A stretch of DNA of 30,091 bases from Chlamydiales bacterium (GTDB lineage: Bacteria; Chlamydiota; Chlamydiia; Chlamydiales; JBDQID01): NCBI GenBank assembly GCA_047611865.1, contig JBLFWS010000024.1, positions 1-30,091 of the forward strand. The letters run 5' to 3'. Positions 769 to 21,902 of this stretch are shown here, in pieces. Each line of letters starts with the position of its first letter. The first letter of the stretch is position 1. The notes beneath the pieces are model-generated. The model was not told the origin of the DNA. It did not search any database and worked only from the letters and a program-made list of their open reading frames with translations. Both the position numbers and the translations under genes were made by a program.

Positions 769-836
769 GCAATTTATTTAATGCGATGATTTGAGAAAAG
801 AATACTAAGTTGAAAGCATTGACAGTGCTGATAGCA

Positions 837-870: not shown

Positions 871-882
871 CGGGTGAAGAAT

Positions 883-1593
883 TTAAGCGGAAACGAGTTC
901 TCTTTGAAGAATGAGAGCTAGTTCATTTACACTGTCTATCACATATTTGGGAGTGGGAAGGCTGGATTTTGGGAGAGGGCGCTTGTTTGTAACAAAACAG
1001 AAGTCAATTCCTGCGTTAATAGCTCCCTGGTAATCACTAGAATATGAGTCGCCTATCATCAGAACTTTGGACTTTGAGAGATTCATTTCTGAAAGGGCGA
1101 GATCAAATATTTCCTTTTTAGGCTTCGAGATTCCCACCGCTTCTGAAATGATGAAACTTTCGAAAAATTCATCCAGATTCATGTTCTTCTTTTTGTTTTC
1201 CTGGATAGACTTAAATCCGTTAGTAATGATTCCCAAACGATGGCTTCCTTTAAGAGAACGGACGCTATCCTCGACGCCAGGAAACCATGAGACGTATTTT
1301 GCCAGAGAACTCTCATATTCTTTGGCTATTTGAGTGGGATCAAGCTTTACCGCTAGGCTGATACATAAGTACTTGAAGCGTTGGAACCCTACCATGCTGA
1401 TCGGCATACGGTCTTCTTCCACAGCGTCCCAACAGAGACGGTTAACAAAGTGATATTCATTTTCGAAGTGTATTTTATCTGTGACTATATCCTGGAAAAA
1501 CATTCCATAGACATGGTCTAAAGATTTTTTTTCCGAGTCAGTAAAATCTACTAAGGTATCATCAAGATCAAATATTAGAGCTTCGTATTCCAT
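883..1593 (-). CDS. yjjG: HAD-family hydrolase, YjjG-like noncanonical pyrimidine nucleotidase
   Basis: Motif I FDLDDTL, ITNG, KP, and GDSYSSDYQGA. Confidence 0.8.
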   Translation of the reverse strand: MEYEALIFDLDDTLVDFTDSEKKSLDHVYGMFFQDIVTDKIHFENEYHFVNRLCWDAVEEDRMPISMVGFQRFKYLCISLAVKLDPTQIAKEYESSLAKYVSWFPGVEDSVRSLKGSHRLGIITNGFKSIQENKKKNMNLDEFFESFIISEAVGISKPKKEIFDLALSEMNLSKSKVLMIGDSYSSDYQGAINAGIDFCFVTNKRPLPKSSLPTPKYVIDSVNELALILQRELVSA

Positions 1594-1949
1594 TTCAAGT
1601 AAGTTCCTTTAGATTCATTAACAGGGTATTTCTTTTCATTTTTTTTTGACTTATCCCAGAAAGCTTGCTCCAGGTCTATATCCAGTAGATCCGCAAGTCG
1701 TGTCAGGTAGGCTACAACATCACCCATCTCGTCTTTTATTTCCTGAAATTTTGTCTCGTGATTTTTGATTTCAAAAGATTCATCGTCGGTTAACCATTGG
1801 AAATGTTCACTGAGCTCACTGGCTTCTTTAACGAGAGCCATTGAGACATTTTTTGGGGTATGGTATTTATCCCATTCTCTTTCTTTCACAAATTGACGTT
1901 GAAATTCCTGGATACTTGTAACGTCAATTGATCCTGCTTTTGCATTCAT
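1575..1949 (-). CDS. MazG-like nucleotide pyrophosphohydrolase (dCTP pyrophosphatase-like)
   Basis: EREWDKYHTPKNVSMALVKEASELSEHFQW, DEMGDV and KNEKKYP motifs. Overlaps the HAD gene by 19 nt. Confidence 0.9.
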   Translation of the reverse strand: MNAKAGSIDVTSIQEFQRQFVKEREWDKYHTPKNVSMALVKEASELSEHFQWLTDDESFEIKNHETKFQEIKDEMGDVVAYLTRLADLLDIDLEQAFWDKSKKNEKKYPVNESKGTYLKWNTKL

Positions 1950-2108
1950 GAAAAAAACTCCCTCTGCTCATCTTAATTGAAAGAAGAATATACTCTTTGT
2001 TTAGTTATAAAGAGAAGAGAAAATTGTTGACCGTAATATACTATGAAAACTAGCATGGTCATTTTGATATAGAATTTAATTAATTTCTTTGCTGTTTTAC
2101 GGCAGGTT

Positions 2109-2141
2109 CTAATCCCTAATCCCTAATCCCTAATCCCTAAT
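2109..2141 (+). repeat. Heptamer tandem repeat (CTAATCC) x4.7
   Basis: ctaatcc ctaatcc ctaatcc ctaatcc ctaat, ending 19 nt upstream of the ATG at 2161. Confidence 0.95.
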
Positions 2142-2160
2142 ATATAAGGTGTAAATTCAT

Positions 2161-2685
2161 ATGTGTTTTTCATTTTTGTTCCCTTGTTGTCAAGATCCTA
2201 ATCGCCTTATAGACTCAGATCTTGGTGAAGAAAAATTTGCGAGCCCTAAAAGTACAGAAATGGAAAAGCGTGAAGCCGTAGACAAAAAAATTACGGTTGA
2301 AGGCAGAAATAGACTTGAAACAACAGTCGCGACTCCTGAGCAAGGCTCCAGAGGGAGTAGTTCTGTGGGTTTTTCTAATAATTTTACGATTCCTGTTTCT
2401 ATGAAAGATATGAATAGAATGGACGGTCTTCCATCCAGTTTTTTGCGGAAAAAGGAACTAGCTGCCCCGCCTTCTAGTCCTGTGGGTTCTTCAGATGAGG
2501 TCCGATTGGCACAGATATCCTCCCGGAAAATAGAAAACTTAAATCTTTTGCATGCTATATCCCATCATAGTTTTAAATCGAGCTCCGCTATTACTGAGGA
2601 AGTGGGTGAAGTTTTAAGAGGTGTTGCCATGGAAGCATCCCTTAATGGAGAAATTGAGGGATGGGTAGACGTGTCTCAAGAATAA
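2161..2685 (+). CDS. Hypothetical Ser-rich, probably disordered protein
   Basis: 174-aa ORF filling the intergenic gap. AAGGTG SD before the ATG. No recognisable domain. Confidence 0.65.
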   Translation: MCFSFLFPCCQDPNRLIDSDLGEEKFASPKSTEMEKREAVDKKITVEGRNRLETTVATPEQGSRGSSSVGFSNNFTIPVSMKDMNRMDGLPSSFLRKKELAAPPSSPVGSSDEVRLAQISSRKIENLNLLHAISHHSFKSSSAITEEVGEVLRGVAMEASLNGEIEGWVDVSQE

Positions 2686-2745: not shown

Positions 2746-3942
2746 ATGACAAAGATTGGAACCCCTCTTTCACCGACCGCTACTACTGTGTTGCTATGTG
2801 GGGCTGGTGAGCTAGGCAAAGAAGTCGCGATTGAGCTGCAGCGCCTTGGAGTAGAAGTTGTTGCAATTGATAGGTATCCTTACGCTCCAGCTATGCAAGT
2901 GGCTCACCGATCCCATGTGGTTTCTATGCTTGATGGGTCAGAGTTGCGCCGGGTCATTGAAGAAGAAAAACCGGATTTAATCGTTCCTGAAATTGAAGCG
3001 ATAAATACTGAGGTTCTAAAAGAACTTGAAGAGGAGGGCTATCGTGTGGTCCCCTCTGCCAAAGCTACGAATATCACGATGAACAGGGAAAATATTCGCA
3101 AGCTGGCATCAGAAGAGCTTGGGCTGAAGACTTCGCCGTATACGTTTGTCTCCGATAAGGACACATTCATTGATGCTGTGCAGTCCATAGGGATGCCCTG
3201 TGTAGTAAAACCTATCATGAGCTCCTCGGGAAAGGGGCAGAGTGTAGTTCGTTCTTTGGCGGATCTTGATTCTGCCTGGGAACTTGCTCAAACTGGAGGC
3301 AGAACTGGAGAGGGAAAGCTTATTATAGAAGGCTTTGTAGAATTTGATTACGAAATCACTCTTTTGACAGTTCGTCATTCTGATGGAAAGGGAGGTACGA
3401 CCACAAGCTTTTGTGAACCTATCGGCCACCGCCAGGAGGGTGGAGACTACAAGGAGTCCTGGCAACCTCACCCCATGAGTCCCGAGCTTTTAGTGAAGTC
3501 TCAGGAGATGGCTATAGAAATTACTGAGGCACTAGGAGGATGGGGGGTCTTTGGCGTGGAACTCTTTATAAATGGTGATGAGGTTTTCTTTAGTGAAGTC
3601 TCTCCGCGACCTCATGATACAGGGATGGTGACGATGATTTCTCAGAATCTCTCAGAGTTTGCTCTACATGCTTTAGCAATTCTTGGGTTTCCTATACCCT
3701 CAATACGTCAGCTAGGCCCTTCAGCATCATCTGTTATAATGGCGGAAGGGGAGTCGAATCAAGTGGTCTTTGCGAATCTTGCCGAAGCTATGTCGCTTCC
3801 GGATACTCAGCTACGCCTTTTCGGGAAACCTGAAGTAAAAGGACAGCGGAGAATGGGAGTTACCCTGGCATTGGGTGCGACGTTGGAAGAAGGACGAGAA
3901 AAGGCCAGTGCAGCCTCTTCTCAAGTCATCATTAATTTGTAG
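2746..3942 (+). CDS. purT: Formate-dependent phosphoribosylglycinamide formyltransferase
   Basis: [46 protein letters not shown] and RRMGV motifs. Start moved to ATG 2746, which follows GGAGA. Confidence 0.97.
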
Positions 3943-3945
3943 TTT

Positions 3946-4320
3946 TTAGAAGTATTTTTCGATGTTTTTTTCGAGGTGAAATGAACAGACATTAGGGATG
4001 AGTATTCTTAGAATGGGGGTAAGGTAAGCTCTTTCTCTATTTCGAAGTCTCAGATCGCGAACTTTGTTACTTAAAACTTCTGGTGTTAATGAGGCTTTGT
4101 TTTCTACAACTACTCGAGTAAAGCATCGGTCGCAGTCATCCCCTTGAAAAATTGTGTTTGAGCAGTCGAGGCATCTTACAGTCCGGCGTAGTAGCGGGTG
4201 ATTATCTGGGAGTTCAACGGGCTCAAATGGGAGACTCTCTTCGTATCTTAGATGGGAGTCAGTAACTATTAATAGTTGTGGGTTAATATGGGGAAATTGA
4301 TATAAAGGTGTGAGTGACAT
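3946..4320 (-). CDS. Hypothetical protein with CxxC-x9-CxxC zinc-ribbon-like motif
   Basis: CLDCSNTIFQGDDCDRC. ATG 4320 is preceded by AAGGA; the ORF track starts at 4365. Confidence 0.55.
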   Translation of the reverse strand: MSLTPLYQFPHINPQLLIVTDSHLRYEESLPFEPVELPDNHPLLRRTVRCLDCSNTIFQGDDCDRCFTRVVVENKASLTPEVLSNKVRDLRLRNRERAYLTPILRILIPNVCSFHLEKNIEKYF

Positions 4321-4433
4321 TGAAATCCTTACTATCATTAAATTAAATTTACGGTTAATTTTCATCTAATACTCTTATAGCACATTAATGTTATTAATGG
4401 TTGGTTAAGATTGTTCATGTTGTAGTTGTTATA

Positions 4434-4643
4434 GGCGTTGTTGCATAACTTAATACGTTTACAATTATTTATTTAACCACAGAGAGCACCGAGAACACAG
4501 AGAGATAGAAAAATGCATAAAGTTTCTCAGAATATGCTATCAACTGATCTGTGATTTTTTATTTTCTCTGTGCCCTCTGTGATCTCGGTGGTAAAATTTT
4601 AATTATAAGCCTCTTGTAGACGCATGTTTTATGCGACAACGCC
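4434..4643. repeat. Nested inverted-repeat element
   Basis: Outer imperfect IR 4434-4464 / 4614-4643 (GGCGTTGTTGCATAA.. / ..TTATGCGACAACGCC). Inner IR 4474-4505 / 4565-4594 (ACCACAGAGAGCACCGAGAACACAGAGA / TCTCTGTGCCCTCTGTGATCTCGGTGGT). Confidence 0.85.
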
Positions 4644-7388: not shown

Positions 7389-7490
7389 GGTTTTTTGTTA
7401 AAAAGCTTGAAAAGAAAACGCTATTAAGGCAAGAATTGTGTTTTTAGTGAAATAAAACACTATTTAATATCAAAAGAAAGCTACAAGCCA

Positions 7491-7580
7491 ATGAAAGTCA
7501 ACCAAGCTCTATCCACAATTATTCTAGTGATTATTACTATTGTGGTGGATAGCCATAACAGGGTGCGGACTTACGCGTAG
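7491..7580 (+). CDS. ilv leader peptide 1, MKVNQALSTIILVIITIVVDSHNRVRTYA
   Basis: Translated by hand. Ile/Val/Leu/Thr cluster with Leu encoded as CTA. GGTGCGG in its 3' end is complementary to the terminator left arm. Confidence 0.9.
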   Translation: MKVNQALSTIILVIITIVVDSHNRVRTYA

Positions 7581-7606
7581 GCTTAAATAGCTAAAGCAAG
7601 TTAAGT

Positions 7607-7643
7607 AAAAGCCGCACCTTAAGCAAGGTGCGGCTTTTTTTTT
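7607..7643 (+). terminator. Attenuator terminator 1 of the ilv operon
   Basis: AAAAGCCGCACCTT-aagc-AAGGTGCGGC followed by T9. Antiterminator partner GGTGCGG at 7562-7568. Confidence 0.93.
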
Positions 7644-7684
7644 GGCCAAAAGCAAAGATGGAAAAATACAAAAGAAAAGAAAAA

Positions 7685-7789
7685 ATGAAAAGTACTCTTA
7701 AGCAAATCATTCCAAGCCTAGTCATTGTGAACATTATTATTGTGATTCTAGTCGTCCTAGTGAAGGAGACGAGGTGCGGGCTGATGTGA
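7685..7789 (+). CDS. ilv leader peptide 2, MKSTLKQIIPSLVIVNIIIVILVVLVKETRCGLM
   Basis: Translated by hand. 14 of 15 consecutive residues are I/V/L, with three CTA Leu codons. Alternative in-frame ATG at 7658. Confidence 0.9.
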   Translation: MKSTLKQIIPSLVIVNIIIVILVVLVKETRCGLM

Positions 7790-7817
7790 TAGAGATACAC
7801 AGCAGTTAAGGTTTGAC

Positions 7818-7856
7818 AAGAACCGCACCTCGAAAGAAGTGCGGTTCTTTTTTTTT
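7818..7856 (+). terminator. Attenuator terminator 2 of the ilv operon
   Basis: AAGAACCGCAC..GTGCGGTTC followed by T9. Antiterminator CGAGGTGCGG (7770-7779) pairs perfectly with CCGCACCTCG (7823-7832). Confidence 0.93.
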
Positions 7857-7888
7857 ATCAAAAGCAATAGCGAAAAAGGAATCGGGGA

Positions 7889-9574
7889 ATGAATCAAACA
7901 GGATCTACAGCGTTGATCCAGGCACTGCTAAAGGAGGGAGTTGATCTCATCTTTGGATATCAGGGTGGAGCCATTATGCCAAGCTATGATGCACTATATG
8001 ATGTGCAGGAAGAAATAAAGCATGTGATGGTACGCCATGAACAGGGTGCGGTCCATGCTGCAGAGGGCTATGCTCGGGCGACAGGGAAAACAGGCGTTTG
8101 CTTTGCCACATCTGGACCAGGAGCCACGAACCTTGTTACAGGTATCGCTGATGCGATGCTCGATTCTGTTCCCATTGTATGTATAACAGGTCAGGTAAAT
8201 AGCGCATTTCTCGGAACCGATGCTTTCCAGGAAGTCGATATAATGAGTATTACTGCTCCCATCACCAAGTGGAGCTATCAGGTAAGTGATGCGGAGGACA
8301 TCCCCGATTGTATCGCAAAGGCTTTTCACCTTGCTCGAAGTGGGCGGCCAGGACCCGTAGTTGTGGATATTACAAAAGATGCACAAATGGGAGAGTTTAA
8401 AAAGGGTCGCGAAATATACAAGGGCAATACGAGTAAGGCATTTAAGGAAGAGCCTACCCAACACCAAGTTATACGGGCAGCAAACTTGATCAACGGGGCT
8501 AAAAAGCCTCTTATGTTTGTAGGGCAAGGGGTGCTTCTTTCTGGAGCAGAAAAGGCGGCCCGTGAATTGGCAGAAAAAGCAGACATCCCTGTGGCATCTA
8601 CTTTGCTTGGTCTTTCTTCTTTTCCTGGAGATCACCGTTTACATATGGGGATGCTGGGGATGCATGGGAATTATGCTCCCAATTTACTGACGAATGAAGC
8701 CGATGTTATTATAGCAGTAGGAATGCGCTTTGATGACAGAGTGACAGGGGCACTTTCCAGATACGCGAAACAAGCAGAGATTATCCATATCGATATTGAT
8801 GCTTCTGAATTGAATAAAAATGTTCCAGTTTCTGTAGCCATACATGCTGATGCAAGAAAAACTTTGGAAAGCCTTTTCTCGCACGTTCATGAGAATAAGC
8901 ATTCGGAATGGGTAGAGAAGTTCTACAGCTGCAGAGGGCTTGAGAAAGAGACTGTTTTTAAGAAGGATTTCAAGGGATTAGGTGAGGACATAAAAATGGC
9001 AGAGGCGGTGGACCTCTTATCACGGATGGCCCCAAAAAAGACTGTAGTTGTAACTGATGTGGGTCAGCACCAGATGGTTACCGCTCGCTATTTTGATTTT
9101 CAACAAACAAATGCTCATATTACTTCGGGTGGATTGGGAACAATGGGCTTTGCCCTACCTGCTGCGATTGGCGCAAAGATGGGACGTAGAGATAATGAGG
9201 TGCTTGCAGTGATAGGCGACGGAGGCTTCCAAATGTGTATTCAGGAGCTGGGAGTTATTATGCAGGAGAAGCTACCCGTTAAAATCGTTATTCTTAACAA
9301 CAGTTTTTTGGGAATGGTAAGGCAATGGCAGGAGCTCTTTCACGGGGGGCGCTATTCGTGTGTTGAGATGGTAAACCCAGAATTCACAAAGATAGCTGAA
9401 GGCTATGGGATCAAGTCCAGAAAAGTCCAGAAAAGAGAAGATTTAGCAGAAGCCATCAAGGAGATGTTCTCTTCTGATGAGGCGTATTTATTAGAAATCG
9501 CTGTGGAAAAGGAACAGAAAGTGTATCCGATGGTGCCACCAGGTTCCACCGCAGCAGAAGTCGTTTTAGCATAA
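7889..9574 (+). CDS. ilvB: Acetolactate synthase (AHAS) large subunit
   Basis: RHEQGA, TSGPGATN, GMLGMHG, RFDDRVTG, DVGQHQM, and the TPP motif GDGGFQM...NN. Confidence 0.97.
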   Translation: MNQTGSTALIQALLKEGVDLIFGYQGGAIMPSYDALYDVQEEIKHVMVRHEQGAVHAAEGYARATGKTGVCFATSGPGATNLVTGIADAMLDSVPIVCITGQVNSAFLGTDAFQEVDIMSITAPITKWSYQVSDAEDIPDCIAKAFHLARSGRPGPVVVDITKDAQMGEFKKGREIYKGNTSKAFKEEPTQHQVIRAANLINGAKKPLMFVGQGVLLSGAEKAARELAEKADIPVASTLLGLSSFPGDHRLHMGMLGMHGNYAPNLLTNEADVIIAVGMRFDDRVTGALSRYAKQAEIIHIDIDASELNKNVPVSVAIHADARKTLESLFSHVHENKHSEWVEKFYSCRGLEKETVFKKDFKGLGEDIKMAEAVDLLSRMAPKKTVVVTDVGQHQMVTARYFDFQQTNAHITSGGLGTMGFALPAAIGAKMGRRDNEVLAVIGDGGFQMCIQELGVIMQEKLPVKIVILNNSFLGMVRQWQELFHGGRYSCVEMVNPEFTKIAEGYGIKSRKVQKREDLAEAIKEMFSSDEAYLLEIAVEKEQKVYPMVPPGSTAAEVVLA

Positions 9575-9590: not shown

Positions 9591-9965
9591 ATGGATAACT
9601 TTGACTATATCATAACAGCAAAATGTATGGACCTACCGACATCTTTGCAGCGATTAATGTCGTTAGTAAGGAGAAAGGGCTTAAAGGTGAAGCAATTGAA
9701 TGTAACGGATGCTGAAGTAGACGGGCAGATGCTTCTAAAACTGATGCTGGAGGGGAAGCATAATAAAGTCGAGAACCTCGTAAGGCATTTAAGGAAGATG
9801 TTCACCATGCAAGATGTTCAGGTTAGTTTTAAAATATTGGAAGAAACAAAAGAAAGCACAATAGAAAACAGACGCTTTGGACTTAGTAATCGTTTTATAG
9901 ATTTTGGGGGATATTCTCCGATAGATTCTCTAGAAGAGCAAATGGCAACAGCACAAATAATGTAA
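9591..9965 (+). CDS. AHAS small subunit, single ACT domain (IlvM-like)
   Basis: Lies directly after ilvB. SLQRLMSLVRRKG...VENLVRHLRK follows the ACT pattern. The canonical NxPGVL motif is absent. Confidence 0.75.
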   Translation: MDNFDYIITAKCMDLPTSLQRLMSLVRRKGLKVKQLNVTDAEVDGQMLLKLMLEGKHNKVENLVRHLRKMFTMQDVQVSFKILEETKESTIENRRFGLSNRFIDFGGYSPIDSLEEQMATAQIM

Positions 9966-9980
9966 AAAAAGGAAAAGATT

Positions 9981-11075
9981 ATGTCAAAAATGAAATTTGG
10001 AAATGAAGAAGAAGAAGTTGTGAATCGTCAAGAGTTTCCTCTGGAAAAATCTTTAGAAACTTTGAAAGGAGAAACCATAGCAGTACTTGGATACGGGGTA
10101 CAGGGACCTGCTCAAGCATTGAATCTAAGAGACAACGGCTTCAATGTCATCATAGGGCAAAGAAAGCATTCACGTTCTTGGGAAAAGGCATTAAATGATG
10201 GCTGGAAAGAAGGGGTGAACTTGTTCCCTCTGGAAAAGGCTTGTGAGTTAGGGAGCTTTATATGTTACCTGCTATCAGATGCAGGGCAGATGCAGTTATG
10301 GGATACGATAAAACCTTATCTTACCCCAGGAAAAACGCTTTGCTTCTCCCATGGATTTTCAGTGACTTATGCTGAACAAACAAAAGTTGTTCCTCCTGAG
10401 GGTTTGGATGTGCTTCTCGTAGCTCCAAAAGGTTCTGGTAGAAGCGTAAGAAAGTTATTTCTAGAAGGTAAGGGGATTAATGCAAGCTATGCTGTTTTTC
10501 AGGATGACAGTGGCAATTCACATGAAAAAGCGAAGGCTTTTGGTATCGGTATAGGATCAGGTTATCTTTTTAAAACCGATTTTAAAAGCGAAGTTTTTAG
10601 TGACCTGATGGGTGAGCGTGGAGTCCTGATGGGTGCTTTGGGTGGTATGATCGAAGCTCAGTATGAAGTACTAAGAGAAAATGGGCATTCACCCAGTGAA
10701 GCTTTTAACGAAACGGTAGAAGAGTTGACTCAAAGCCTCGTTCCTCTTGTTGGAGAAAATGGGATGGACTGGATGTACGCCAACTGCTCAACAACGGCCC
10801 AACGTGGAGCACTAGACTGGAGCAAACGCTTTAAAGCAGAGCTTAAGCCATTGTTTGAAGAACTATATAATGATGTGGCTACAGGAAAAGAGACGGCTAT
10901 AGTCCTCGATGCTAACTGTCGTTCTGATTACAAGGAACAGTTGGATAAGGAATTGGCGGAGCTCGGAGAAAAGGAAGTCTGGAGAGTGGGGAAAAAAGTT
11001 CGTGAGCTACGCCCTCAAAATGGTAATCAAGAATCTATAGAAGAAAGGGTGACTTGTTTTGTACCAGCTAGTTGA
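9981..11075 (+). CDS. ilvC: Ketol-acid reductoisomerase
   Basis: GYGVQG, SHGF, VAPKGSG, SDLMGERGVLMG and CSTTAQRGA motifs. Confidence 0.97.
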   Translation: MSKMKFGNEEEEVVNRQEFPLEKSLETLKGETIAVLGYGVQGPAQALNLRDNGFNVIIGQRKHSRSWEKALNDGWKEGVNLFPLEKACELGSFICYLLSDAGQMQLWDTIKPYLTPGKTLCFSHGFSVTYAEQTKVVPPEGLDVLLVAPKGSGRSVRKLFLEGKGINASYAVFQDDSGNSHEKAKAFGIGIGSGYLFKTDFKSEVFSDLMGERGVLMGALGGMIEAQYEVLRENGHSPSEAFNETVEELTQSLVPLVGENGMDWMYANCSTTAQRGALDWSKRFKAELKPLFEELYNDVATGKETAIVLDANCRSDYKEQLDKELAELGEKEVWRVGKKVRELRPQNGNQESIEERVTCFVPAS

Positions 11076-12891
11076 TTTCAAAACGAAAGAAAATGTTGAA
11101 GCAAAGGACCTGGTCTTTACAGGCGACGAAAACCCCTGGGAAGTAGTGGTGGATTTGGAAAAGGTGAAAAAGAAAATAAACCTCGATCACTTTAAGCAGG
11201 TTCCTCCAAGCCTTTCGAAGTACCTACCTTTCCTGCCTATCAAAGACTACGGGAATTTTGTCTCTTTGAGAGAGAGTGCGACACCTTTGATACAGTCGAA
11301 GTCTCTGGGTAAGAAATTGGGTGTGGATCTATATTTTAAACTCGAGGGAAAGAACCCCACAGGCTCTTTTAAAGATAGAGGGTCTGCAGTAGACATCTCT
11401 GTAGCAAAAGAATTCAATGCAAAGGGAATTGTTCTTGCTTCAACAGGAAATATGGCAGCCTCTTGCTCTTGTTATGCAGCGGCTGCAAAGATACCTTGTT
11501 TTGTTTTTATTCCCGAGGGTGTGTCTATGGGCAAATTGGCCCAAGTGATATCTTTTGGTGGGCGCATAGTGCAGGTTAAAGGTACCTACAATGATGCGGC
11601 AAGATTAGCTGAATCAGTTGCAAAAAGCATGGGCTTCTATCTGGCCGGGGATTATGCCTTCAGAGTAGAGGGACAGAAAACAGCAGCCTTTGAGTTGATG
11701 GATCAGATGTTTTTCCAAGATGTTGACAAAGTAGTTTTGCCTATAGGTTGTGGTACAAATATGGCGGCTTATGTCAAAGGTTTTAGAGAATATCGCTACC
11801 TGGGACTTATAGAAACTATTCCACAGCTGATAGGTGTTCAGGCAGAAGGAGCCTCCAGCGTAATCAACAGCTTCAACAAAAAAAGTTGGAGCATAGAGAG
11901 CACTAAGGGGGTAAACACCTCGGCTTCTGCAATAGCGGTGGCTGATCCCTTGGATGGGACAAAAGCCTTAGAAGCAATATACAATACAGGAGGAGAAGCT
12001 TATTCCGTGACGGATCAGGAAATTCTCCACTCGCAGTATTTGTTGGCTAAAGAGGAAGGCTTGTTTGTGGAGAGTTCTTCCGCCTCAGCAGTAGCTGCCT
12101 TGTTTAAGATGTCTCTGGATAAAAGCGCAAAGGGACAGAGAGTTGTTTGCATTCTTACTGGGGATGGCTTGAAAGATCCAGATGTTATCCTAAAGGCTGC
12201 CTTAAAGCCCCCTACTATAAGGCCTGAAGAAAAGGAATTTAAGAGTCTTTACGATGGTGGGTTTTTTAATAGCAAAAATATCGTCTTTCTTGATAAGGAT
12301 GTTCCACTCTTTTCTAAAGCTCCGACAGCGGATGAAGTTAGGGAATCCCTTACGCAGTTTTTTAATGCAGATTTTTGTAACGAATATGTGGAGAAGATCA
12401 AAGAACTCTCTTCTGCATGTTTAGCAAAAGGAAAGACGGTAACTCATTCAGACTTCCAGGATATTGTACAGGATGTCTTAGAGAGTTCTGATAGTGAAGT
12501 GGAAAAAGATTTTACTGTTTTAGACTTCGAAGTAAGCACAGGAAAAGATAAGGTCGCCAAAGCGCAAGTTGAGGTAGTTTTTAGAGGGTTAAAGCATGTG
12601 GCTCATGCAAAAGGTGTAGGACCCGTTGATGCCGTTATCAACGCCTTATCCAAAGCCTGTAAAGGGGAAATTGATTTTAAATTGACGAATTACAAAGTAG
12701 ATATCCGTAATAAAGGCGTGGATGCTCTGGTATATGTGGAGCTGAAGTTGGAAAAGGATTGTCATTCTTCTTTAGGGCAAGCAACTTCTCCAGATATTAT
12801 ACAAGCTTCAATAGAAGCTTTTGAGGGAGCATATAACGGATTTATCAACTCGCAAAAAAACAAGGTACTTCATGAGTCAGGTTCTCAATAA
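11059..12891 (+). CDS. thrC: Threonine-synthase-like PLP enzyme fused to a C-terminal LeuA/CimA-type allosteric domain
   Basis: [10 protein letters not shown] (PLP Lys), [21 protein letters not shown]. The C-terminus has [34 protein letters not shown] start overlapping ilvC. Confidence 0.85.
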
Positions 12892-14551
12892 ATACAGTTC
12901 GACTATCACGCAAAGAAAATCCCAAGGTGCCTCACAGGCCATGCTTTATGGAACAGGGCTAAGTCGAAAGGACATGGATAAAGCGCAGGTGGGTATTGCA
13001 AGTATGTGGTATGACGGGAATACCTGTAACATGCACCTTTTAGAGCTTGCAAGCCTGATTCGAGAGAGCGTTAAAGAAGAGGGACTCGTAGGCGTTCGTT
13101 TTAATACCATTGGAGTTAGCGATGGTATTTCCATGGGAACGAGCGGGATGAGATATTCTTTGCAGTCCCGGGAAATAATCGCCGACTCTATCGAAACGGT
13201 AATGGAAGCACACTTTTACGATGCCTGTATTGCTGTTCCTGGGTGTGATAAGAATATGCCCGGCAGTATTATTGCTTTAGCTCGATTGAATCGACCTTCT
13301 TTTATGATATTTGGTGGGACGATAAAACCTGGATGCCTAAAGAAAAAAAATCTGGATGTGGTTTCCGCTTTTCAAAGTTATGGCGAATACCTTGCGGGTA
13401 ATATCGATGATAAAGCCCGAGAAGAAATTGTGAAGGCTTCTTGTCCAGGTCCCGGTGCCTGTGGGGGGATGTATACCGCCAATACCATGGCCTGTGCAAT
13501 CGAGGCGATGGGTATGTCCATGCCTTACAGTTCTTCAACTCCAGCCATCGATTCTTTGAAAGAGGAGGAATGTTCAAAAGCGGGTGCTGTTATCCGGAAT
13601 CTTTTAGAGAAGGATCTTAAGCCCAGTGATATTATGACGAGGGAAGCCTTTGAAAATGCTATGGTTCTCGTAACTGTTCTTGGAGGTTCTACAAATGCGG
13701 TTCTTCACCTTCTGTCAATGGCAAGAGCCATTGGAGTAGAATTATCTCTGGAAGACTTTCAAAATGTTAGTGATCGTATTCCTCTTTTGGCGGATATCAA
13801 ACCCAGCGGGAAATATTTGATGAATGACCTGCATGAAGTAGGAGGAACTCCTGCGGTAATGCGTATGTTGCTGAAGGAAGGTCTACTAAACGGACACTGT
13901 ATGACCGTTACTGGAAAGACTATTGCTGAAAACCTTAAGGGTTTGCCGGACCTTACGGAAGGGCAAAGAGTTATTATGCCTTTTTCTGAGGCAATTAAAA
14001 AGACAGGTCATCTGCAGATTCTAAAGGGAAATCTTGCTCCAGAGGGTTCTGTAGCCAAGATTACAGGAAAAGAAGGCTTGACGTTTTCTGGTCCAGCAAA
14101 AGTCTTTGATGATGAAGAGTCCATGATTAAGGCTTTGGAGAAAGGCCAGTTAGAAAAAGGAGATGCTATCGTTATACGATATGTGGGTCCTAAAGGTGGT
14201 CCTGGTATGCCTGAGATGCTGAAGCCCTCTTCTGCTCTAATGGGCTCCGGCCTTGGAAAGCATGTGGCATTACTTACTGATGGACGATTTTCCGGAGGAT
14301 CTCATGGCTTTCTCATCGGACACATATCTCCCGAAGCTCAAGATGGTGGTCCCCTTGCTTTGCTACAGGATGGAGACAGAATTGTTATCGATGCTGAAAA
14401 AAATACTCTCGATGTCAATCTTTCTGAAGGAGAATTTGAAGAAAGAAGGAGAAATTGGAAAGCACCGGCCTACAAAGTTAGTAGGGGAGCATTGTTTAAG
14501 TATATAAAAAATGTAAAATCTGCCAGCGTGGGCTGCGTAACAGATGAATAA
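12872..14551 (+). CDS. ilvD: Dihydroxy-acid dehydratase
   Basis: [42 protein letters not shown] and TDGRFSGG motifs. Start moved to ATG 12872. Confidence 0.97.
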
Positions 14552-14561
14552 AAGGAATACT

Positions 14562-14975
14562 ATGTCTTTATCTTTTGAAAGAATAGCTACAGAAAAAGCT
14601 CCAAAAGCCTTGGGACCATATTCACAGGCTACAAGTGTTGACCTAACGAATTCAAGATTATTATTTGTCTCCGGTCAGTTACCTATTATTCCAGAAACAG
14701 GAAAAATGATCTCTGGAGATATTATAGCCATGACGCATCAGATCCTCGATAACTTGGACACGATCCTTAAGGAGGGCGGAAGTAGCATGAGATCGGTCTT
14801 GCGCGTTGACGTGTTTATGAAAGATCTTAATGACTTCGAAGCTTTCAATGAAGTTTATGGCATGCGTTTTACTGGGCCCAAATACCCAGCCAGACAGACT
14901 GTTCAGGTAGAAAAGCTGCCACTAGACTCACCTATTGAAATATCATGCATAGCCTTCCAGGAGACAGGGAAATGA
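14562..14975 (+). CDS. ridA: RidA (YjgF/YER057c/UK114) enamine/imine deaminase
   Basis: APKALGPYSQA, VSGQLP, FNEVY, PARQTVQV (catalytic Arg) and IEISCIA. AAGGA SD before ATG 14562. Confidence 0.93.
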   Translation: MSLSFERIATEKAPKALGPYSQATSVDLTNSRLLFVSGQLPIIPETGKMISGDIIAMTHQILDNLDTILKEGGSSMRSVLRVDVFMKDLNDFEAFNEVYGMRFTGPKYPARQTVQVEKLPLDSPIEISCIAFQETGK

Positions 14976-15925
14976 CAAACAAAGAAATGAACTATTGTTA
15001 CTTTAGAAAGCAAATTGTTCCCTTGGAGAAAGCAACAGTAAATGTTTCTTGCCAGACTATGCAATATGGAAGTAGTTGTTTTAGTGGAATACGAGGTTAC
15101 TACCGAGAGGGAAAGGTACGTTTGTTCCGCTTGAGAGATCATTATGAGAGGCTAATGGAGGGTTCAAAAATTTTAGGTTTTGACTTTTTTTTAGAGTACG
15201 AAGCCTTCGAAAAAATAATAGAAGACCTTGTTACGACTAATACTCCGGAAGAGGATTTTTATATTCGGCCGTTTATTTTTACGGAAGATGACAGCCTTGG
15301 ACCATGCTTTGATACTCCTCTCTTTGACATGTCAGTTTATATGAAGCCTTTGAGTAACTATTACGATCCTCACAAGGGGTTGAGGATGATGATTTCCTCT
15401 TGGAGGAAAATGTCGGATTCTTCGATATCTGTAAAAGCAAAGGCTGGCGGCTCTTATTTGAATTCTTCATTGGCTACTACTGAAGTAAAACGTTGTGGCT
15501 ATGATGAAGCTCTTTTAATGGATCAGCATGGTTCTATTGCTGAAGGAAGTGCAGCAAACATTCTTATTGAATATCAAGGAAGTATTATCACTCCTCCTCT
15601 AGGGGCAGCCACCCTGAACGGAATCACGATGAGAACTGTTGTAGAACTTTTACAAAGTGAGGGGATACTCGTACGCTTCGAGCCAATCGATCGTTCTATG
15701 GTTTATACCTGTAACGAGCTCATCCTTACTGGAACAGCAGCACAGGTGAGCTTTGCCTCTTCCGTTGATGGGAGAGAGATGGGTAAAAGCGCTCCCGGGA
15801 AGCCTGGCCCTTTATGCCAAATGTTGAGAGGTTTGTTTAATGAGGTCTTAGATATGAAGAGCCCATTTTCGGATAAATGGATAAGAGAGTTTTCTCTTAG
15901 TGCTGAAGAAGCTTCAGTCGTTTGA
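14972..15925 (+). CDS. ilvE: Branched-chain amino acid aminotransferase (class IV)
   Basis: QYGSSCFSGIRGY, LFRLRDHYERL, KAGGSYLNS, EGSAAN, LNGITMRTV and TGTAAQV. ATGA overlap with ridA. Confidence 0.92.
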   Translation: MTNKEMNYCYFRKQIVPLEKATVNVSCQTMQYGSSCFSGIRGYYREGKVRLFRLRDHYERLMEGSKILGFDFFLEYEAFEKIIEDLVTTNTPEEDFYIRPFIFTEDDSLGPCFDTPLFDMSVYMKPLSNYYDPHKGLRMMISSWRKMSDSSISVKAKAGGSYLNSSLATTEVKRCGYDEALLMDQHGSIAEGSAANILIEYQGSIITPPLGAATLNGITMRTVVELLQSEGILVRFEPIDRSMVYTCNELILTGTAAQVSFASSVDGREMGKSAPGKPGPLCQMLRGLFNEVLDMKSPFSDKWIREFSLSAEEASVV

Positions 15926-16809: not shown

Positions 16810-17064
16810 CTATTGTATTGCTTTTGCCAAGATCATAATTTCTTTGTAGATCTTCTCTAGATGTTTTTGGACAATAGATTCTTTTGCATACTGTTTAATA
16901 CTTTTCAGGACCTCACTTTCTCGCTGACAATCAAAGACCTCCTTTTGATGGTGGCGTTTTACCTTTCCTATATTGGCTGCAATGGCTGTGCGTTTTTCTA
17001 TTAGGTGCACTAACTGTTTATCTATTGTATCAATTTCATTTCGTAAGCTTTCCAAGCTGTTCAT
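16810..17064 (-). CDS. Monofunctional chorismate mutase (AroQ type)
   Basis: LESLRNEIDTIDKQLVHLIEKR, IGKVK and DCQRESEVL. ATGA overlap with the PDT gene and a GGAG SD. Confidence 0.92.
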   Translation of the reverse strand: MNSLESLRNEIDTIDKQLVHLIEKRTAIAANIGKVKRHHQKEVFDCQRESEVLKSIKQYAKESIVQKHLEKIYKEIMILAKAIQ

Positions 17065-17651
17065 GGCTTTCTCCATGATTTTTTTTGAAGAGCAAGAAAA
17101 AGAGTGTAGTTGTGTTCTTCGTCTTCTAAGTTTTCCTGTGCAATAGAGAGGTTATTGAGCCTTGCGCATTCTGAGCTTCCTATTGCGGCATAACGTATGT
17201 CATTCATTTTTGCCACATGCGATGATGCTCTTGCGGTGTCGGAATAGGCAACGGCTTCTATCCAGGGGTGTTCTTGAAAAAACTTAGCACATTGGGCTAA
17301 AGCTTTAGGGTGGGAGTAGATCTTTTTGAGCTTACGGAGATCTAGCCCTGATTCATCAAGATAAGGTACTAAAAGCTTAAGTTCTACTTTGAGCCAGTCC
17401 TCATGAAAAATTTTGAGTTCGTATTTTTTCATCAGTTCGATATTTTCTTCTATGGGCCCTACAAGAGAATTTTTTATGGGAACCACTGCCAAGCTTGCTT
17501 TTCCCTTATCTACCGCTTCGAAAATTTTATTGAAGCTACTGTATCCAGCAAATTCATCGAGAGAGGGAAGGAGCTTTCTTGCTGCCTGGTGGGAAAAGGA
17601 TCCCCTTCCGCCAAGGTAGGCAGCAACACCAAAGGGGTTCAGTCTCTTCAT
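17061..17651 (-). CDS. pheA: Prephenate dehydratase, catalytic domain only (no ACT domain)
   Basis: AYLGGRGSFSHQAA, VVPIKNSLVG, YSHPKALAQC, DTA and NYTLF. The gene ends immediately after the catalytic domain. Confidence 0.88.
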   Translation of the reverse strand: MKRLNPFGVAAYLGGRGSFSHQAARKLLPSLDEFAGYSSFNKIFEAVDKGKASLAVVPIKNSLVGPIEENIELMKKYELKIFHEDWLKVELKLLVPYLDESGLDLRKLKKIYSHPKALAQCAKFFQEHPWIEAVAYSDTARASSHVAKMNDIRYAAIGSSECARLNNLSIAQENLEDEEHNYTLFLALQKKSWRKP

Positions 17652-18439
17652 TATGCGACCTTCGCTGTTTCAAGGGTTTTTCTGAAAAGATCGAGGGAAA
17701 GCTGTTGTTCTTTGTCTGTTCGGGCATTTTCCGGATCATTATGAACTTCAATAATGTTGCCATCGAAAGAGTATTTCTTTGCAAGCCGCAGAATCTCGAG
17801 GACTCTTTCTCTTGTTCCACCAATATGTGAAGGGTCTAAAATCATGGGAACTCCAGTTTTTAGCCTTACACGCATGGCCATGTCCAGATCGGGTAGGTTT
17901 CTGTAAGATCTTGGATTTTCTTGCCTGCCTGGGCTGAATCCACGATGGCACATGAGTAATCGATTTCGGGGGAGTCCTTCATTGATAATGTGCTCGAGTA
18001 TTCCCAGCCAATGTTTTTCGTTGTCCCATGGTTGGTTTTTAATCATAAGGTAGGTTTGTCCAGACCCTTCAGCCAAGACTTTCGCAATTTTCTTTTGTTC
18101 GAAATGGTTTTGGTTCCGAGCGCCAAGCCAGACTAGTAGACGAGCATCTTTCCCGTAATTTTGAATTTCTCTGTCCAGTAGCTCTGCATGCTCAGCTGTG
18201 ATGATTTCTGTTGCAGGAATGAGACCGAGGGGAACGGTTTCTTCCATAAGAATTTTTGCTCCTTCATCTCCTAGTCCTTCCCAACCCGGTTGTGTCCGAG
18301 GTTTCCATAGAGAGGCTCGGATGACTTTGACGCCAACTTGCCTGAGTACCGTAGCGCATTCCTTAAGTTGTTCTCTTGATTCGAGGGCGCAGGGTCCCGC
18401 TATTGTGATGTTTCCTAGATGATTTAATAGATTGTCCAT
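17651..18439 (-). CDS. DAHP synthase, class I-beta, catalytic barrel only
   Basis: IAGPCALES, WKPRTQPGWEGLG, WLGAR, CHRGFS, DPSHIGG and IEVHNDPENARTD. Confidence 0.9.
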   Translation of the reverse strand: MDNLLNHLGNITIAGPCALESREQLKECATVLRQVGVKVIRASLWKPRTQPGWEGLGDEGAKILMEETVPLGLIPATEIITAEHAELLDREIQNYGKDARLLVWLGARNQNHFEQKKIAKVLAEGSGQTYLMIKNQPWDNEKHWLGILEHIINEGLPRNRLLMCHRGFSPGRQENPRSYRNLPDLDMAMRVRLKTGVPMILDPSHIGGTRERVLEILRLAKKYSFDGNIIEVHNDPENARTDKEQQLSLDLFRKTLETAKVA

Positions 18440-18799: not shown

Positions 18800-20131
18800 C
18801 TATTGATCGCAAAGATTTAAATTTTTGTCAATCTTATTTGAAAGATGTTTGGGAATAGTAGCGGTTTTTAAAATATCATTGAGCGTTTCTCTTTTCCTAA
18901 TGAGGTGAGATTCGCCCGAGCAAACAAGAACTTCTGCAGCACGGGGTTGAGTATTGTATTGGGAGCTCATGGAAAAACCATAAGCGCCTACATCGAGCAG
19001 AGCTAGCAGATCCCCAACTTCGAGTTTGCTTGGCAGGAGGCGGTCCTTGGCGAACTGGTCAGTATTCTCGCAAATAGGCCCTACCACATTGACCTCTTTG
19101 TCACAGGGCGCATCTAGCTTGTTGGCGCAAAGGATGTGGTGATAGGTGTCATAGAGGGCTGGGCGTAAAAGAGTGTTCATTCCAGCATCGACACCTATAA
19201 ATGTCTTATGTGTTTTCTTTTTGGATACCACTGAAGTTAGTAGAATGCCTGCATCAGCAACCAAGTAACGTCCTGGCTCATGAATTAAGGCGGGTTCTCC
19301 CATTTCATATTTTACTAGTCTGTCTTTGAATGTCTCAACTACTTCCCTTGCGACAGCATCGATATCCAGATCGCTCTGTTCTGGCTTATAGGGGATTCCT
19401 AAGGATCCTCCTATATCGATAAACTCAAATTGAATCCCCAGTTTCTGGGCGATGGGACCTACAATATCGAGTAGTCGGGCAACGATTTCTTTGAAGTAGG
19501 GAGGGCTGAGAATGTTGGAACCTGTCATCATGTGGACACCAAAATGCCTTACGCCTAATTCTTTTGCCTTAGCGTAGGCTTCTTCTACCTGTGATTCCAC
19601 GATGCCGAATTTGGCATCTTTTCCAGCAAAGACAAGACCCTCTGACCCACTACTTCCAACACCGGGATTGACGCGAAAACTAAGAAATTCGGGCATACCA
19701 AATCGCGCGAGGTGGTTGAGATCCTCGATGTTTTCCAGATTTATCAGAACGTTTTTACTGAGGGCTTCAGCAAGACTTTCCTGAGAAGGGAAAACGGGTG
19801 AAAAGAGTTGTTTGTTTGCCGCTATTCCCACAAGGCTTGCTATATCCAGCTCTCCCACACAAGAACAGTCTGCACCAGCGCCTTCTTCAGCTAGAATCTT
19901 TACTACGGCGGGGTGGTTGTTGGCTTTTACAGCATAGTATAGGGAAAAGTGTGGATAGTATTTTTTGTAAGCTTGTATCAGGCGACGGGTGTTATCTCGG
20001 ATGCGGTTTTCGCTATAGACATAGAGAGGAGACCCATACTTTTCTACAAGGTCACGAGCGGGGCAGCCGTCAATTAGTAACTCGCCGTTGCTTTCTTCCA
20101 GCTGTGAAACAGAATGCCAAATATTATCCAC
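18800..20131 (-). CDS. lysA: Diaminopimelate decarboxylase
   Basis: YGSPLYVYS, YAVKAN (PLP Lys), KFGI, HEPGRYLV, GPICENTD and GAYGFSMSSQYN. GTG start after GAGGAG. Confidence 0.96.
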   Translation of the reverse strand: MDNIWHSVSQLEESNGELLIDGCPARDLVEKYGSPLYVYSENRIRDNTRRLIQAYKKYYPHFSLYYAVKANNHPAVVKILAEEGAGADCSCVGELDIASLVGIAANKQLFSPVFPSQESLAEALSKNVLINLENIEDLNHLARFGMPEFLSFRVNPGVGSSGSEGLVFAGKDAKFGIVESQVEEAYAKAKELGVRHFGVHMMTGSNILSPPYFKEIVARLLDIVGPIAQKLGIQFEFIDIGGSLGIPYKPEQSDLDIDAVAREVVETFKDRLVKYEMGEPALIHEPGRYLVADAGILLTSVVSKKKTHKTFIGVDAGMNTLLRPALYDTYHHILCANKLDAPCDKEVNVVGPICENTDQFAKDRLLPSKLEVGDLLALLDVGAYGFSMSSQYNTQPRAAEVLVCSGESHLIRKRETLNDILKTATIPKHLSNKIDKNLNLCDQ

Positions 20132-20134
20132 TTG

Positions 20135-21526
20135 TTATCTCCTCGATTCTGATGTGTGTAATTTGCTTAAATTTGATTCAAAAAATTGAGAGTGTAGTTG
20201 TTTTACTGCTTGATGAACATCTTCCTCGTCTACTAAAAAACACATGTTGTGTTCGGAAGCTCCTTGGCAAATCAATCTGACGTTGCATGAGCCCATGGCA
20301 TCAAAAGCTTGTTTGCCTAATCCGGCAGTCAGTGAGAGTTTGTTACCTACCATGGCAATAAGAGCTAGCCCTTCCTCAACTTTTACATTGGCGATTTCTC
20401 TAAGGTCCTCCAAAGCTTGTTTACTGAGAACAGAATCGTTGTCCAACGTTACAGAAACACTTACTTCGCTGGTAGTAACGAGATCTACACTTATCTTATG
20501 CTTTGCCAGTATGGCAAAGAGATTAGCTAAAAATCCACAAGCTTTAAACATCTTTAAACTACTTGCTGTTACAAGTGTCTGACGATGCCTTATGGCAATA
20601 GCTCGCATAACGGGAAGATTACTTACAGTTTTACGAATCCAAGTGCCTCTACACTCTTTTTCGAAACTGGATCCTACAAATACCGGTATGTCACAGCGAA
20701 TGGCCGGCCAAAGGGTGGTGGGGTGTAGAACTTTTGCCCCAAAAGTTGCAAGCTCCGCAGCTTCTGCAAAAGATACTTCTTCGATAGTCTTGCATTGATC
20801 TATTTTTCTGGGGTCACAGCTGAGGATGCCAGGAACATCAGTCCAGATATACAGACTATGGGCATTTAGGGCTTCTGCAAGTAAGGCGGCGCTGTAGTCA
20901 CTTCCACCTCTACCAAGGGTTGTAGTAACACCGTTTTCAGTAGAACCAATAAATCCTTGGGTAACAACAGTTGTGCCTTTATCCAGGAAGGGTTTGATTT
21001 TTTGACGAGTAAGGGAACGAATGTTTTGGATTTGAGGCTCTGCACAGTTATAGCTGTCGTCAGTTCTAATGACTTCTCTTGCATCGATATTCAGAGCATC
21101 GACCTTTATCTTAACGAGAGCTTCGGTAAAAAGGATGGAGGATAGGCGTTCTCCAATACTCGAAATTTGATCAATGGAGCGTTTGGAGGATTCTTTAAGA
21201 AGATGGATGCCCATTGCAAGAGAGGAGAGTTCTTCTAGTATGACTTCGATTTTATTATTAGCTTCTTGACAGACCGGAATGGCAAGGGCTGTCTCTCGGT
21301 GTTTTTTACAAAGTTTTTCAAGAAGTTCTTGAGCAAGATCCCACTTGTTTCCTGAGGCGATCTCTGAGAGTTTTAGTAGATCATTTGTGACACCGGACAT
21401 TGCACTAACAACGATAAGAGCTTTACTTTGCCTTTCAGCAACAAGCCTTGCGGCAGAGTGTATTCTTGCGGCATCTTTTAGGCTGGTCCCGCCAAATTTT
21501 GCTACAATATATTTCTGAGTAGTCAT
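20135..21526 (-). CDS. lysC: Aspartate kinase, lysine-sensitive AKIII type with two ACT domains
   Basis: VAKFGGTS, TTLGRGGSDYSA, WTDVPG, FGAKVLHP and ISVDLVTTSEVSVS. Confidence 0.96.
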   Translation of the reverse strand: MTTQKYIVAKFGGTSLKDAARIHSAARLVAERQSKALIVVSAMSGVTNDLLKLSEIASGNKWDLAQELLEKLCKKHRETALAIPVCQEANNKIEVILEELSSLAMGIHLLKESSKRSIDQISSIGERLSSILFTEALVKIKVDALNIDAREVIRTDDSYNCAEPQIQNIRSLTRQKIKPFLDKGTTVVTQGFIGSTENGVTTTLGRGGSDYSAALLAEALNAHSLYIWTDVPGILSCDPRKIDQCKTIEEVSFAEAAELATFGAKVLHPTTLWPAIRCDIPVFVGSSFEKECRGTWIRKTVSNLPVMRAIAIRHRQTLVTASSLKMFKACGFLANLFAILAKHKISVDLVTTSEVSVSVTLDNDSVLSKQALEDLREIANVKVEEGLALIAMVGNKLSLTAGLGKQAFDAMGSCNVRLICQGASEHNMCFLVDEEDVHQAVKQLHSQFFESNLSKLHTSESRR

Positions 21527-21592
21527 AGCTTTTCCTTAGTATTTAAGGAGAGAGAATTTTAAAAATGGTGGTGGTATAATGTATGACCCACA

Positions 21593-21763
21593 ACCAGTAG
21601 CTCTCCACGTTACTTACGTGACAGTCCCAGGGCTTCACCCCTAGAAGGACCAACAAGAAAAGTTCCAGAGCTTTTCCTACTTCGGCGTTAATCCCCTTCT
21701 TCGGTTTTCATTGAGACCAGGATCTCTCCAACCGAATATCTGGTTAACGCTCCTCTTACTGAT
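21593..21763 (-). promoter_or_regulatory. Lysine riboswitch (L-box)
   Basis: The minus strand reads CAGTAAGAGGAGC...AAGGGG..ACGCCGAAG...GACTGTC..GGAGAGCTACTG, matching the L-box consensus. Located upstream of lysC-lysA. Confidence 0.95.
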
Positions 21764-21902
21764 TTCTTAAGAAAGAAAATACGCTTTATTGATAAACGTA
21801 TTCAGAATATTCAGTCAATGGCTATTTTTCCTTAGACATTTATTGGGAGCTGTCTATTCTGACCAAAGCGCCTTTCTATTTTATAAAAAAGGAGTAATAA
21901 CC

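Follow-up and report, generated by a model that had tools for sequence, protein, structure and literature searches.

A ThrC-like enzyme fused to a LeuA-type domain in an ilv operon: a probable isoleucine-inhibited threonine deaminase in place of IlvA

The 30,091-nucleotide (nt) stretch analyzed here, in the following called the window, is the entire contig JBLFWS010000024.1 of the Chlamydiales bacterium assembly GCA_047611865.1. It carries an ilv operon for branched-chain amino acid (BCAA) biosynthesis with the gene order ilvB, small subunit, ilvC, a threonine synthase (ThrC)-like gene, ilvD, ridA, and ilvE. The locus raises the question of which reaction is catalyzed by a ThrC-like enzyme that holds the pathway position expected of the threonine dehydratase IlvA and ends in a regulatory domain of the LeuA type. 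The probable answer is an isoleucine-inhibited threonine deaminase of class I (short) threonine synthase ancestry, serving in place of IlvA.

Architecture and active site of the ThrC-like protein

The ThrC-like gene is one open reading frame (ORF) of 610 codons with a TTG start. The N terminus of the 610-amino-acid (aa) product fits the MYxLxDF of its homologues. A Pfam scan of the protein (E ≤ 0.01) yields the domains PALP and LeuA_dimer only, which bears out the fusion of a pyridoxal 5′-phosphate (PLP) domain with a LeuA/CimA-type domain claimed by the initial annotation; neither Thr_dehydrat_C nor the HMGL-type barrel PF00682 is matched. PF08502 (LeuA_dimer) scores 95.3 bits against a gathering cut-off of 24.9. 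The motifs quoted by the annotation are in place at residues 196 to 208 (nt 11644 to 11682), 228 to 234 (PIGCGTN), and 519 to 525 (GVGPVDA). Its linker of ∼100 aa between the domains did not hold up: residues 369 to 460 (∼92 residues) are conserved across the family and are modeled as helices, and a loose linker was rejected.

The catalytic domain shows the fold type II of PLP enzymes with the Schiff-base lysine in a GSFKDRG motif, as in threonine synthases. The nearest solved sequences are class I threonine synthases, with 36 to 38% identity and E values of 1e-63 to 1e-70. The predicted structure (AlphaFold; pLDDT of 83.6 and pTM of 0.76) gives TM-scores, normalized to the target, of 0.83 to 0.87 with solved class I enzymes, and Foldseek matches obtained with the whole model are confined to the PLP domain. 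The protein stays under the cut-offs of the ThrC models NF006050, NF004170, NF004996, NF005035, and NF006205 and of all threonine dehydratase models of NCBIfam, among them the IlvA model TIGR01127 (128 bits versus a cut-off of 378.75) and TIGR01124 (76.3 versus 411.3 bits).

The C-terminal domain combines the LeuA_dimer score with the motifs GxGPxDA and SPDIIxAS of the LeuA/CimA domain, and G519, G521, P522, D524, A525, S577, P578, and D579 are invariant in the family. A phmmer search of the PDB with the C-terminal 211 aa gave designed repeat proteins only, which are spurious, and a profile search was used instead. The profile, built from 20 domains, matches one solved sequence only in the PDB, 3F6G/3F6H (E 2.9e-6). 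This is the citramalate synthase of Leptospira interrogans, whose PF08502 domain responds to isoleucine according to passages of two publications (PMC10464499 and PMC13381585). The relationship is a weak pointer to isoleucine as a possible effector of the C-terminal domain.

The active site departs from that of threonine synthase. Residues were numbered by hand from the printed alignment to the ThrC of Thermus thermophilus. K61, the PLP lysine of 1UIM, aligns with K105 and is kept. T88, N154, S155, R160, and N188, which we take to be the ligands of the substrate and product phosphate in threonine synthase, carry in the hand numbering exactly the residue numbers of these ligands. Only R160 is kept (as R202); T88 is replaced by M132, N154 by G197, S155 by D198, and N188 by C231. 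With Y199, which adjoins a one-residue deletion relative to ThrC, these four replacements form the remodeled site. The Met, Gly, Asp, and Cys do not vary among the 26 aligned members or among the 74 family ORFs, and a 15-letter motif and the GCGTN motif occur in all 74, short forms included. All five solved threonine synthases compared, the plant enzyme included, retain the Thr, Asn-Ser, Arg, and Asn.

In threonine synthase, the bound phosphate reportedly directs the reaction to threonine rather than to the release of 2-ketobutyrate. From the remodeled site, the appended domain, and the genomic context, we infer the substrate, product, and effector of the window protein as follows. L-Threonine would be bound as a PLP aldimine on K105, and its β-hydroxyl would be eliminated to give PLP-aminocrotonate, which amounts to the final half-reaction of ThrC run backward. 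As the steering of ThrC toward threonine depends on a phosphate site that is dismantled here, 2-aminocrotonate/2-iminobutyrate would be released. Hydrolysis of 2-iminobutyrate to 2-ketobutyrate, presumably aided by the RidA-like protein encoded two genes downstream, would then feed IlvB. The LeuA-type domain most probably binds isoleucine and would feedback-inhibit the enzyme, as in citramalate synthase, and two tandem Ile/Val/Leu attenuators would add control over operon expression. The evolution from a class I threonine synthase would have comprised the dismantling of the phosphate site and the acquisition of a LeuA/CimA sensor domain. As to the chemistry, passages of PMC12172450 report that the ThrC of Microcystis deaminates threonine to 2-ketobutyrate in vitro and state the same of the T. 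thermophilus and Bacillus subtilis enzymes.

Distribution of the gene and of the threonine pathway

The carrier set comprises the genome of the window (G000; 3.59 Mb in 272 contigs, 95.5% complete, 41.5% G+C) and 28 other carrier genomes. G000 contains four PALP-fold genes only: a cystathionine β-synthase (CBS)/CysK-like gene, trpB, a canonical thrC of 438 aa, and the ThrC-like fusion; none of the four in this assembly is IlvA- or TdcB-like. The fusion carries the sole LeuA_dimer domain of the assembly, the only HMGL-type protein is an HMG-CoA lyase, and leuA was found nowhere in the assembly. The absence of thrA, thrB, and leu genes noted in the initial annotation holds for the operon but not for the genome, in which the canonical thrC follows thrA-thrB on contig C7 and leuC-leuD-leuB lies on contig C186. 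The latter cluster (positions 2 to 2355, minus strand) stands at the contig end with only the start of leuB; upstream of leuC, a gap of 740 nt is followed by a 450-aa ORF (3095 to 4447) without a Pfam match.

A separate long-type ThrC (425 to 462 aa) is present in 26 of the 29 carriers, and homoserine dehydrogenase and thrB were found both in G000 and in Francisella philomiragia (G017). The three remaining carriers (G002, G007, and G011) show no ThrC, no thrB, and no homoserine dehydrogenase, and they keep the ThrC-like gene intact in the ilv operon. G002, identical with genome G177, is 96% complete with 2.3 Mb in 3 contigs, and G007 is essentially one contig of 1.7 Mb. Without homoserine dehydrogenase and thrB, these three genomes form no O-phosphohomoserine, and the enzyme cannot act there as a threonine synthase or as a lyase of O-phosphohomoserine; imported threonine is left as the substrate.

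These counts bear on both functions that the initial annotation had offered. The first is a true threonine synthase under BCAA feedback, encoded with the ilv genes so as to provide threonine for isoleucine. Such an enzyme would fit the nearest solved sequences and folds, the ThrC model whose cut-off the protein passes (see below), and the name threonine synthase, which every source gives to it. It would be redundant with the canonical ThrC in the 26 genomes and without substrate in the three that lack homoserine dehydrogenase and thrB; across the 29 carriers, the gene does not behave as the genome's threonine synthase fed by homoserine dehydrogenase and kinase. Moreover, its phosphate site is dismantled, five other ThrC models are not passed, and most carriers would remain without an enzyme for the step from threonine to 2-ketobutyrate. 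A true threonine synthase is therefore very improbable.

The second function, a 2-ketobutyrate-forming enzyme that replaces IlvA, is supported by the operon position, the coupling to ilvD, the absence of IlvA, and the Ile-rich attenuators; the part of the proposal that named O-phosphohomoserine as a substrate and a new entry route to isoleucine is disfavored, as the evidence points to threonine. In that variant, 2-ketobutyrate would arise by γ-elimination from O-phosphohomoserine, homoserine, or an O-acyl- or otherwise activated homoserine, a threonine-independent entry controlled by a LeuA-type sensor. It would draw on an aminocrotonate intermediate that ThrC chemistry shares, R202 and the EGQKT motif are kept, G000 and G017 possess hom, thrB, and thrC, and loss of the phosphate-steering site would favor the release of 2-ketobutyrate. 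Only one of the five presumed phosphate ligands is kept, an Asp stands among the replacements, and the three genomes without a homoserine-derived substrate keep the gene intact, which makes this route quite unlikely. As threonine and not O-phosphohomoserine is indicated as the substrate, the usual isoleucine route is probably run by a new enzyme rather than entered in a new way.

The carriers were also searched for ilvA and cimA, whose co-occurrence the initial annotation had raised together with that of thrB. In 19 of the 28 other carriers, nothing dehydratase-like scores above the family gene itself. The citramalate synthase model TIGR00977 is passed in none of the 29 carriers; this model misses some CimA types, so the absence of CimA is unproven. 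Neither a dehydratase-like nor a CimA/LeuA-like candidate was found in G000 and G001. G002/G177 contains no HMGL-type synthase at all, and its dehydratase-like protein, encoded beside kdpB, is a generic family member under all cut-offs. In G007, a LeuA/CimA-like synthase (contig C1, 405038 to 406177) has a frame of only 427 aa without a LeuA_dimer match, and the sensor domain is found only on the ThrC-like enzyme; G016 and G021 show similar synthase forms of 472 to 473 aa.

The gene follows the ilv pathway in its distribution, as expected for the enzyme in the place of IlvA. In the gammaproteobacterial order around F. philomiragia, 68 genomes were searched, 65 of which were scored in both the gene and the ilvD searches. 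The gene occurs in 32 of 33 genomes with ilvD, the exception being a genome of 1.5 Mb, and in none of the 32 without ilvD. No IlvA over the cut-off was found in 67 genomes of this order; short dehydratase-like proteins are present in nine of the 67, all nine of them carriers. Two matches in this order look like decaying copies, and some members seem to be losing the pathway: G081 has two gene copies covering residues 1 to 380, and G071 has residues 1 to 278 and an ilvD with a stop. In a sample of 151 genomes from the phylum of the window, the gene is found in 2 of 150 genomes and ilvD in 2 of 151, and these are the same two genomes.

The ilv operon, its attenuators, and the weighing of functions

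The ThrC-like proteins form a coherent family. The best 120 database clusters all contain both domains at ∼600 aa and 56 to 81% identity, and the named clusters among them are all called "threonine synthase"; an alignment of 26 members shows a mean column identity of 63%. Family-specific peptide patterns were scanned over GTDB contigs with one genome per species, which matched 228 stretches, 187 of them encoding a relative. Eighty loci were kept for analysis and yielded 74 family ORFs, the other six lying at contig edges or not being recovered as ORFs. Cultured carriers are F. philomiragia, F. sciaenopsi, Fangia hongkongensis, several Cysteiniphilum species, and Facilibium; metagenome-assembled genomes (MAGs) with the gene are labeled Chlamydiae, Verrucomicrobiae, Bdellovibrionota, Neisseriales/Burkholderiales, Legionellales, Coxiella, Dadabacteria, and Nitrospirales. 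MAGs labeled Chlamydiae are among the named relatives closest to the window gene. A literature search, with most subscription journals outside it, revealed no description of a ThrC/LeuA_dimer protein.

The genomic context of the family is that of the ilv genes. Sixty-four of the 74 ORFs have ilvB, ilvC, ilvD, or ilvE on the same strand within 6 kb; ilvD follows immediately downstream in 46, and the gene directly preceding is ilvC in 29 cases and ilvB in 15. A full LeuA adjoins the family gene in five loci. Thirteen of the 74 ORFs lack a recognizable LeuA-type C terminus, namely, one with a divergent tail and 12 short forms of 359 to 430 aa (one cut by a contig end), six of which are located between ilvC and ilvD.

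In the window, the operon is preceded by two tandem leader-peptide attenuators (Table 1), whose short ORFs lie in the interval from 7389 to 7888. Both show the features of ilv-type attenuators: a short ORF with many regulating codons, an intrinsic terminator, and a predicted alternative pairing. The second leader peptide contains 7 Ile and 6 Val overall, with the core region SLVIVNIIIVILVVLV. The heptamer GGTGCGG at 7562 to 7568 duplicates the 3′ arm of terminator 1 and could pair with CCGCACC at 7612 to 7618; likewise, GGTGCGG at 7773 to 7779 could pair with CCGCACC at 7823 to 7829 of terminator 2. Read from this repeat, antiterminator pairing at both leaders is a candidate, and the heptamer placed at the end of the leader ORF is, judged by its letters, the classic attenuator design. 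A simple terminator scanner listed terminator 1 but not terminator 2, and an Rfam scan of the window at gathering scores matched neither a known leader nor a riboswitch in front of ilvB.

Related loci were screened for leaders of 10 to 45 aa with at least eight Ile, Val, or Leu in 12 residues and at least three Ile, lying no more than 500 nt before the first gene of the operon. Such leaders turned up in 25 of 64 loci and, among the 37 operons beginning with ilvB, in 24; as controls, the reverse strand gave 1 of 64 and shuffled sequences gave 38 of 1,280. Some leaders are dominated by isoleucine, such as that of L017 with 7 Ile versus 1 Val and 1 Leu. Leaders of related operons in several phyla end in RCGPM-like residues, which are encoded by the antiterminator arm; this recurrence suggests that operon and attenuator move together. 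In a Nitrospirales MAG (L031, 8818 to 10266), a short variant of 421 aa without the LeuA domain stands alone with no ilv neighbor and has its own leader with five Ile codons and a terminator of the same design, which ties the enzyme itself to isoleucine supply.

Several findings weigh against the assignment as a threonine deaminase. The thrC equivalog model TIGR00260 is the sole NCBIfam model that the protein passes, with 223.9 bits at a cut-off of 167.1. The phosphate-ligand roles of the replaced residues are presumed ones, the check having extended to their numbering. With R202 and the EGQKT motif retained, an anionic substrate may still be accepted. The deaminase side activity of threonine synthases is weak, and high threonine concentrations are the conditions under which it is observed. 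Ser/Thr-dehydratase-like proteins also occur in 9 of the 28 carriers; two of them are IlvA-like in length, one over the TIGR01127 cut-off (G027, the only such case among the 28) and one a near miss at 370 bits (G024), and the other seven of the nine carriers have proteins of 328 to 368 aa with 222 to 300 bits. A second LeuA_dimer protein, possibly a CimA, is present in 22 of the 29 carriers. In G000, the position of leuCDB at a contig edge without LeuA or CimA indicates that a LeuA-type synthase was probably lost in an assembly gap, and the absence of CimA cannot be claimed. A CBS-like and cystathionine γ-lyase-like pair in G000 is another possible source of 2-ketobutyrate, and a cluster of aconitase, Iso_dh, and PrpD proteins on contig C100 could represent another 2-oxoacid route. 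Finally, a ridA-like gene is found in only 7 of the 74 loci.

Part of these findings would fit another BCAA-linked PLP reaction, such as serine deamination to pyruvate, racemization, or β-replacement, with 2-ketobutyrate supplied by a CimA-like synthase, short dehydratases, or cystathionine/methionine γ-lyases. The reaction is deduced from context, the LeuA-like synthases of 22 of the 29 carriers and the short dehydratase-like proteins of 9 of the 28 could fill the step, and G000 has the CBS/γ-lyase pair and the C100 cluster. Against it stand the tight coupling to ilvD and the fixed slot between ilvC and ilvD, the Ile-dominated leaders, one of which precedes a stand-alone copy, the lack of dehydratase-like and CimA/LeuA-like candidates in G000 and G001, and the lack of any HMGL-type synthase in G002/G177. 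Such a reaction is unlikely, and the isoleucine-inhibited threonine deaminase remains the preferred assignment.

The operon with ilvBMCDE and ridA described in the initial annotation is borne out by the model matches of the neighboring genes, with a weak match for the small subunit.

Table 1. Features of the ilv operon and of the ThrC-like protein (positions in the window)
Feature	Position	Strand	Evidence or remarks
Leader peptide 1, 29 aa	7491..7580	+	MKVNQALSTIILVIITIVVDSHNRVRTYA; 5 Ile, 4 Val, 2 Leu
Terminator 1	7607..7647	+	14-bp GC-rich hairpin, then T-run; z -3.0
Leader peptide 2, 43 aa (ATG 7658) or 34 aa (ATG 7685)	7658..7789	+	ends at 7789
Terminator 2	7818..7857	+	hairpin 7818-7849, then T-run; z -3.0
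ilvB, acetolactate synthase large subunit	7889..9574	+	TIGR00118, 715.7 bits
Weakly ilvM/N-like protein, 124 aa, probable acetohydroxyacid synthase (AHAS) small subunit	9591..9965	+	NF008362, E 4.9e-7, below cut-off
ilvC, ketol-acid reductoisomerase	9981..11075	+	17-nt overlap with ThrC-like gene
ThrC-like PLP enzyme fused to LeuA-type regulatory domain	11059..12891	+	ORF, Pfam, NCBIfam, family alignment
Fold-type II PLP catalytic domain, residues 69-368	11263..12162	+	Pfam PF00291 PALP, E 2.9e-71
Conserved connector, modeled as helical, residues 369-460	12163..12438	+	family alignment, structure model
LeuA_dimer allosteric domain, residues 461-594	12439..12840	+	PF08502, E 3.6e-27; GVGPVDA and SPDIIQAS conserved
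ilvD, dihydroxy-acid dehydratase	12821..14551	+	ORF as listed; true start probably slightly downstream
Rid-family enamine/imine deaminase (RidA-like)	14544..14975	+	TIGR00004, 135.3 bits
ilvE, branched-chain amino-acid transaminase	14945..15925	+	just under curated cut-offs

Other amino acid genes of the window lie downstream on the minus strand. A lysine riboswitch (RF00168, 88.2 bits, 21590 to 21765) is located upstream of an aspartokinase of the lysine-sensitive type (20135 to 21526) and lysA (18800 to 20131). The region from 17061 to 18439 encodes a prephenate dehydratase of 196 aa, which matches the models in their catalytic part only and shows no ACT domain, and a 262-aa protein similar to 3-deoxy-D-arabino-heptulosonate 7-phosphate (DAHP) synthase; both score far below the curated cut-offs. 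The C100 cluster of the same genome (L099, 283 to 8147) is comprised of a CitE/acyl carrier protein fusion, CitF, a 181-aa protein, an Iso_dh-family dehydrogenase (379 aa), a fused aconitase-family protein (655 aa), and a PrpD/MmgE protein.

Significance and comparison with known systems

If the assignment is correct, the committed step of isoleucine synthesis in many bacteria is performed by an unrecognized, analogous enzyme. Metabolic reconstructions with a gap at ilvA would thereby be accounted for, and a systematic misannotation would come to light, since the NCBI thrC equivalog model accepts the family. The family would represent a natural case of a synthase turned into a lyase through removal of its product-steering site, and the LeuA-type sensor transplanted onto a PLP enzyme would be of use for biosensors and pathway engineering. 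Should a homoserine derivative be the substrate instead, the enzyme would give isoleucine biosynthesis a starting point that is new and bypasses threonine.

The closest known relatives are the class I threonine synthases (EC 4.2.3.1), with structures from T. thermophilus (1UIM/1V7C/3AEX), B. subtilis (6CGQ/6NMX), Mycobacterium tuberculosis (2D1F), and Aquifex aeolicus (2ZSJ). The window protein shares their fold and the GSFKDRG motif with the PLP lysine but has ∼240 extra C-terminal residues, including the LeuA_dimer domain. In contrast to thrC, the family genes belong to ilv and not to thr operons, and they coexist with a canonical ThrC.

With IlvA (EC 4.3.1.19; 1TDJ/9D2Q from Escherichia coli) and TdcB (2GN0), the protein shares fold type II at a distant relationship (E values of 1e-12 to 6e-20). 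In pathway and operon, it stands where IlvA would be expected and, like IlvA, has a C-terminal allosteric domain for the presumed end-product control, but this domain is LeuA_dimer instead of the ACT-like Thr_dehydrat_C. The protein would thus work like IlvA without belonging to the IlvA family. The CimA of Leptospira and LeuA have PF08502 in common with it; in those proteins, the domain is joined to an HMGL-type TIM barrel, and in the window protein, its partner is a PLP enzyme.

Two threonine synthase homologues show a related diversion to 2-ketobutyrate. Vertebrate THNSL2 is an O-phosphohomoserine phospho-lyase that yields 2-ketobutyrate; this eukaryotic enzyme uses a phosphorylated substrate and lacks a regulatory domain, and it is a model for the homoserine-derivative route rather than for the threonine deaminase preferred here. 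The moonlighting ThrC of Microcystis aeruginosa forms 2-ketobutyrate from threonine in vitro with sigmoidal kinetics and inhibition by isoleucine, as stated in passages of PMC12172450. This cyanobacterial enzyme is still a working threonine synthase and has neither the LeuA domain nor the ilv operon context of the family described here.

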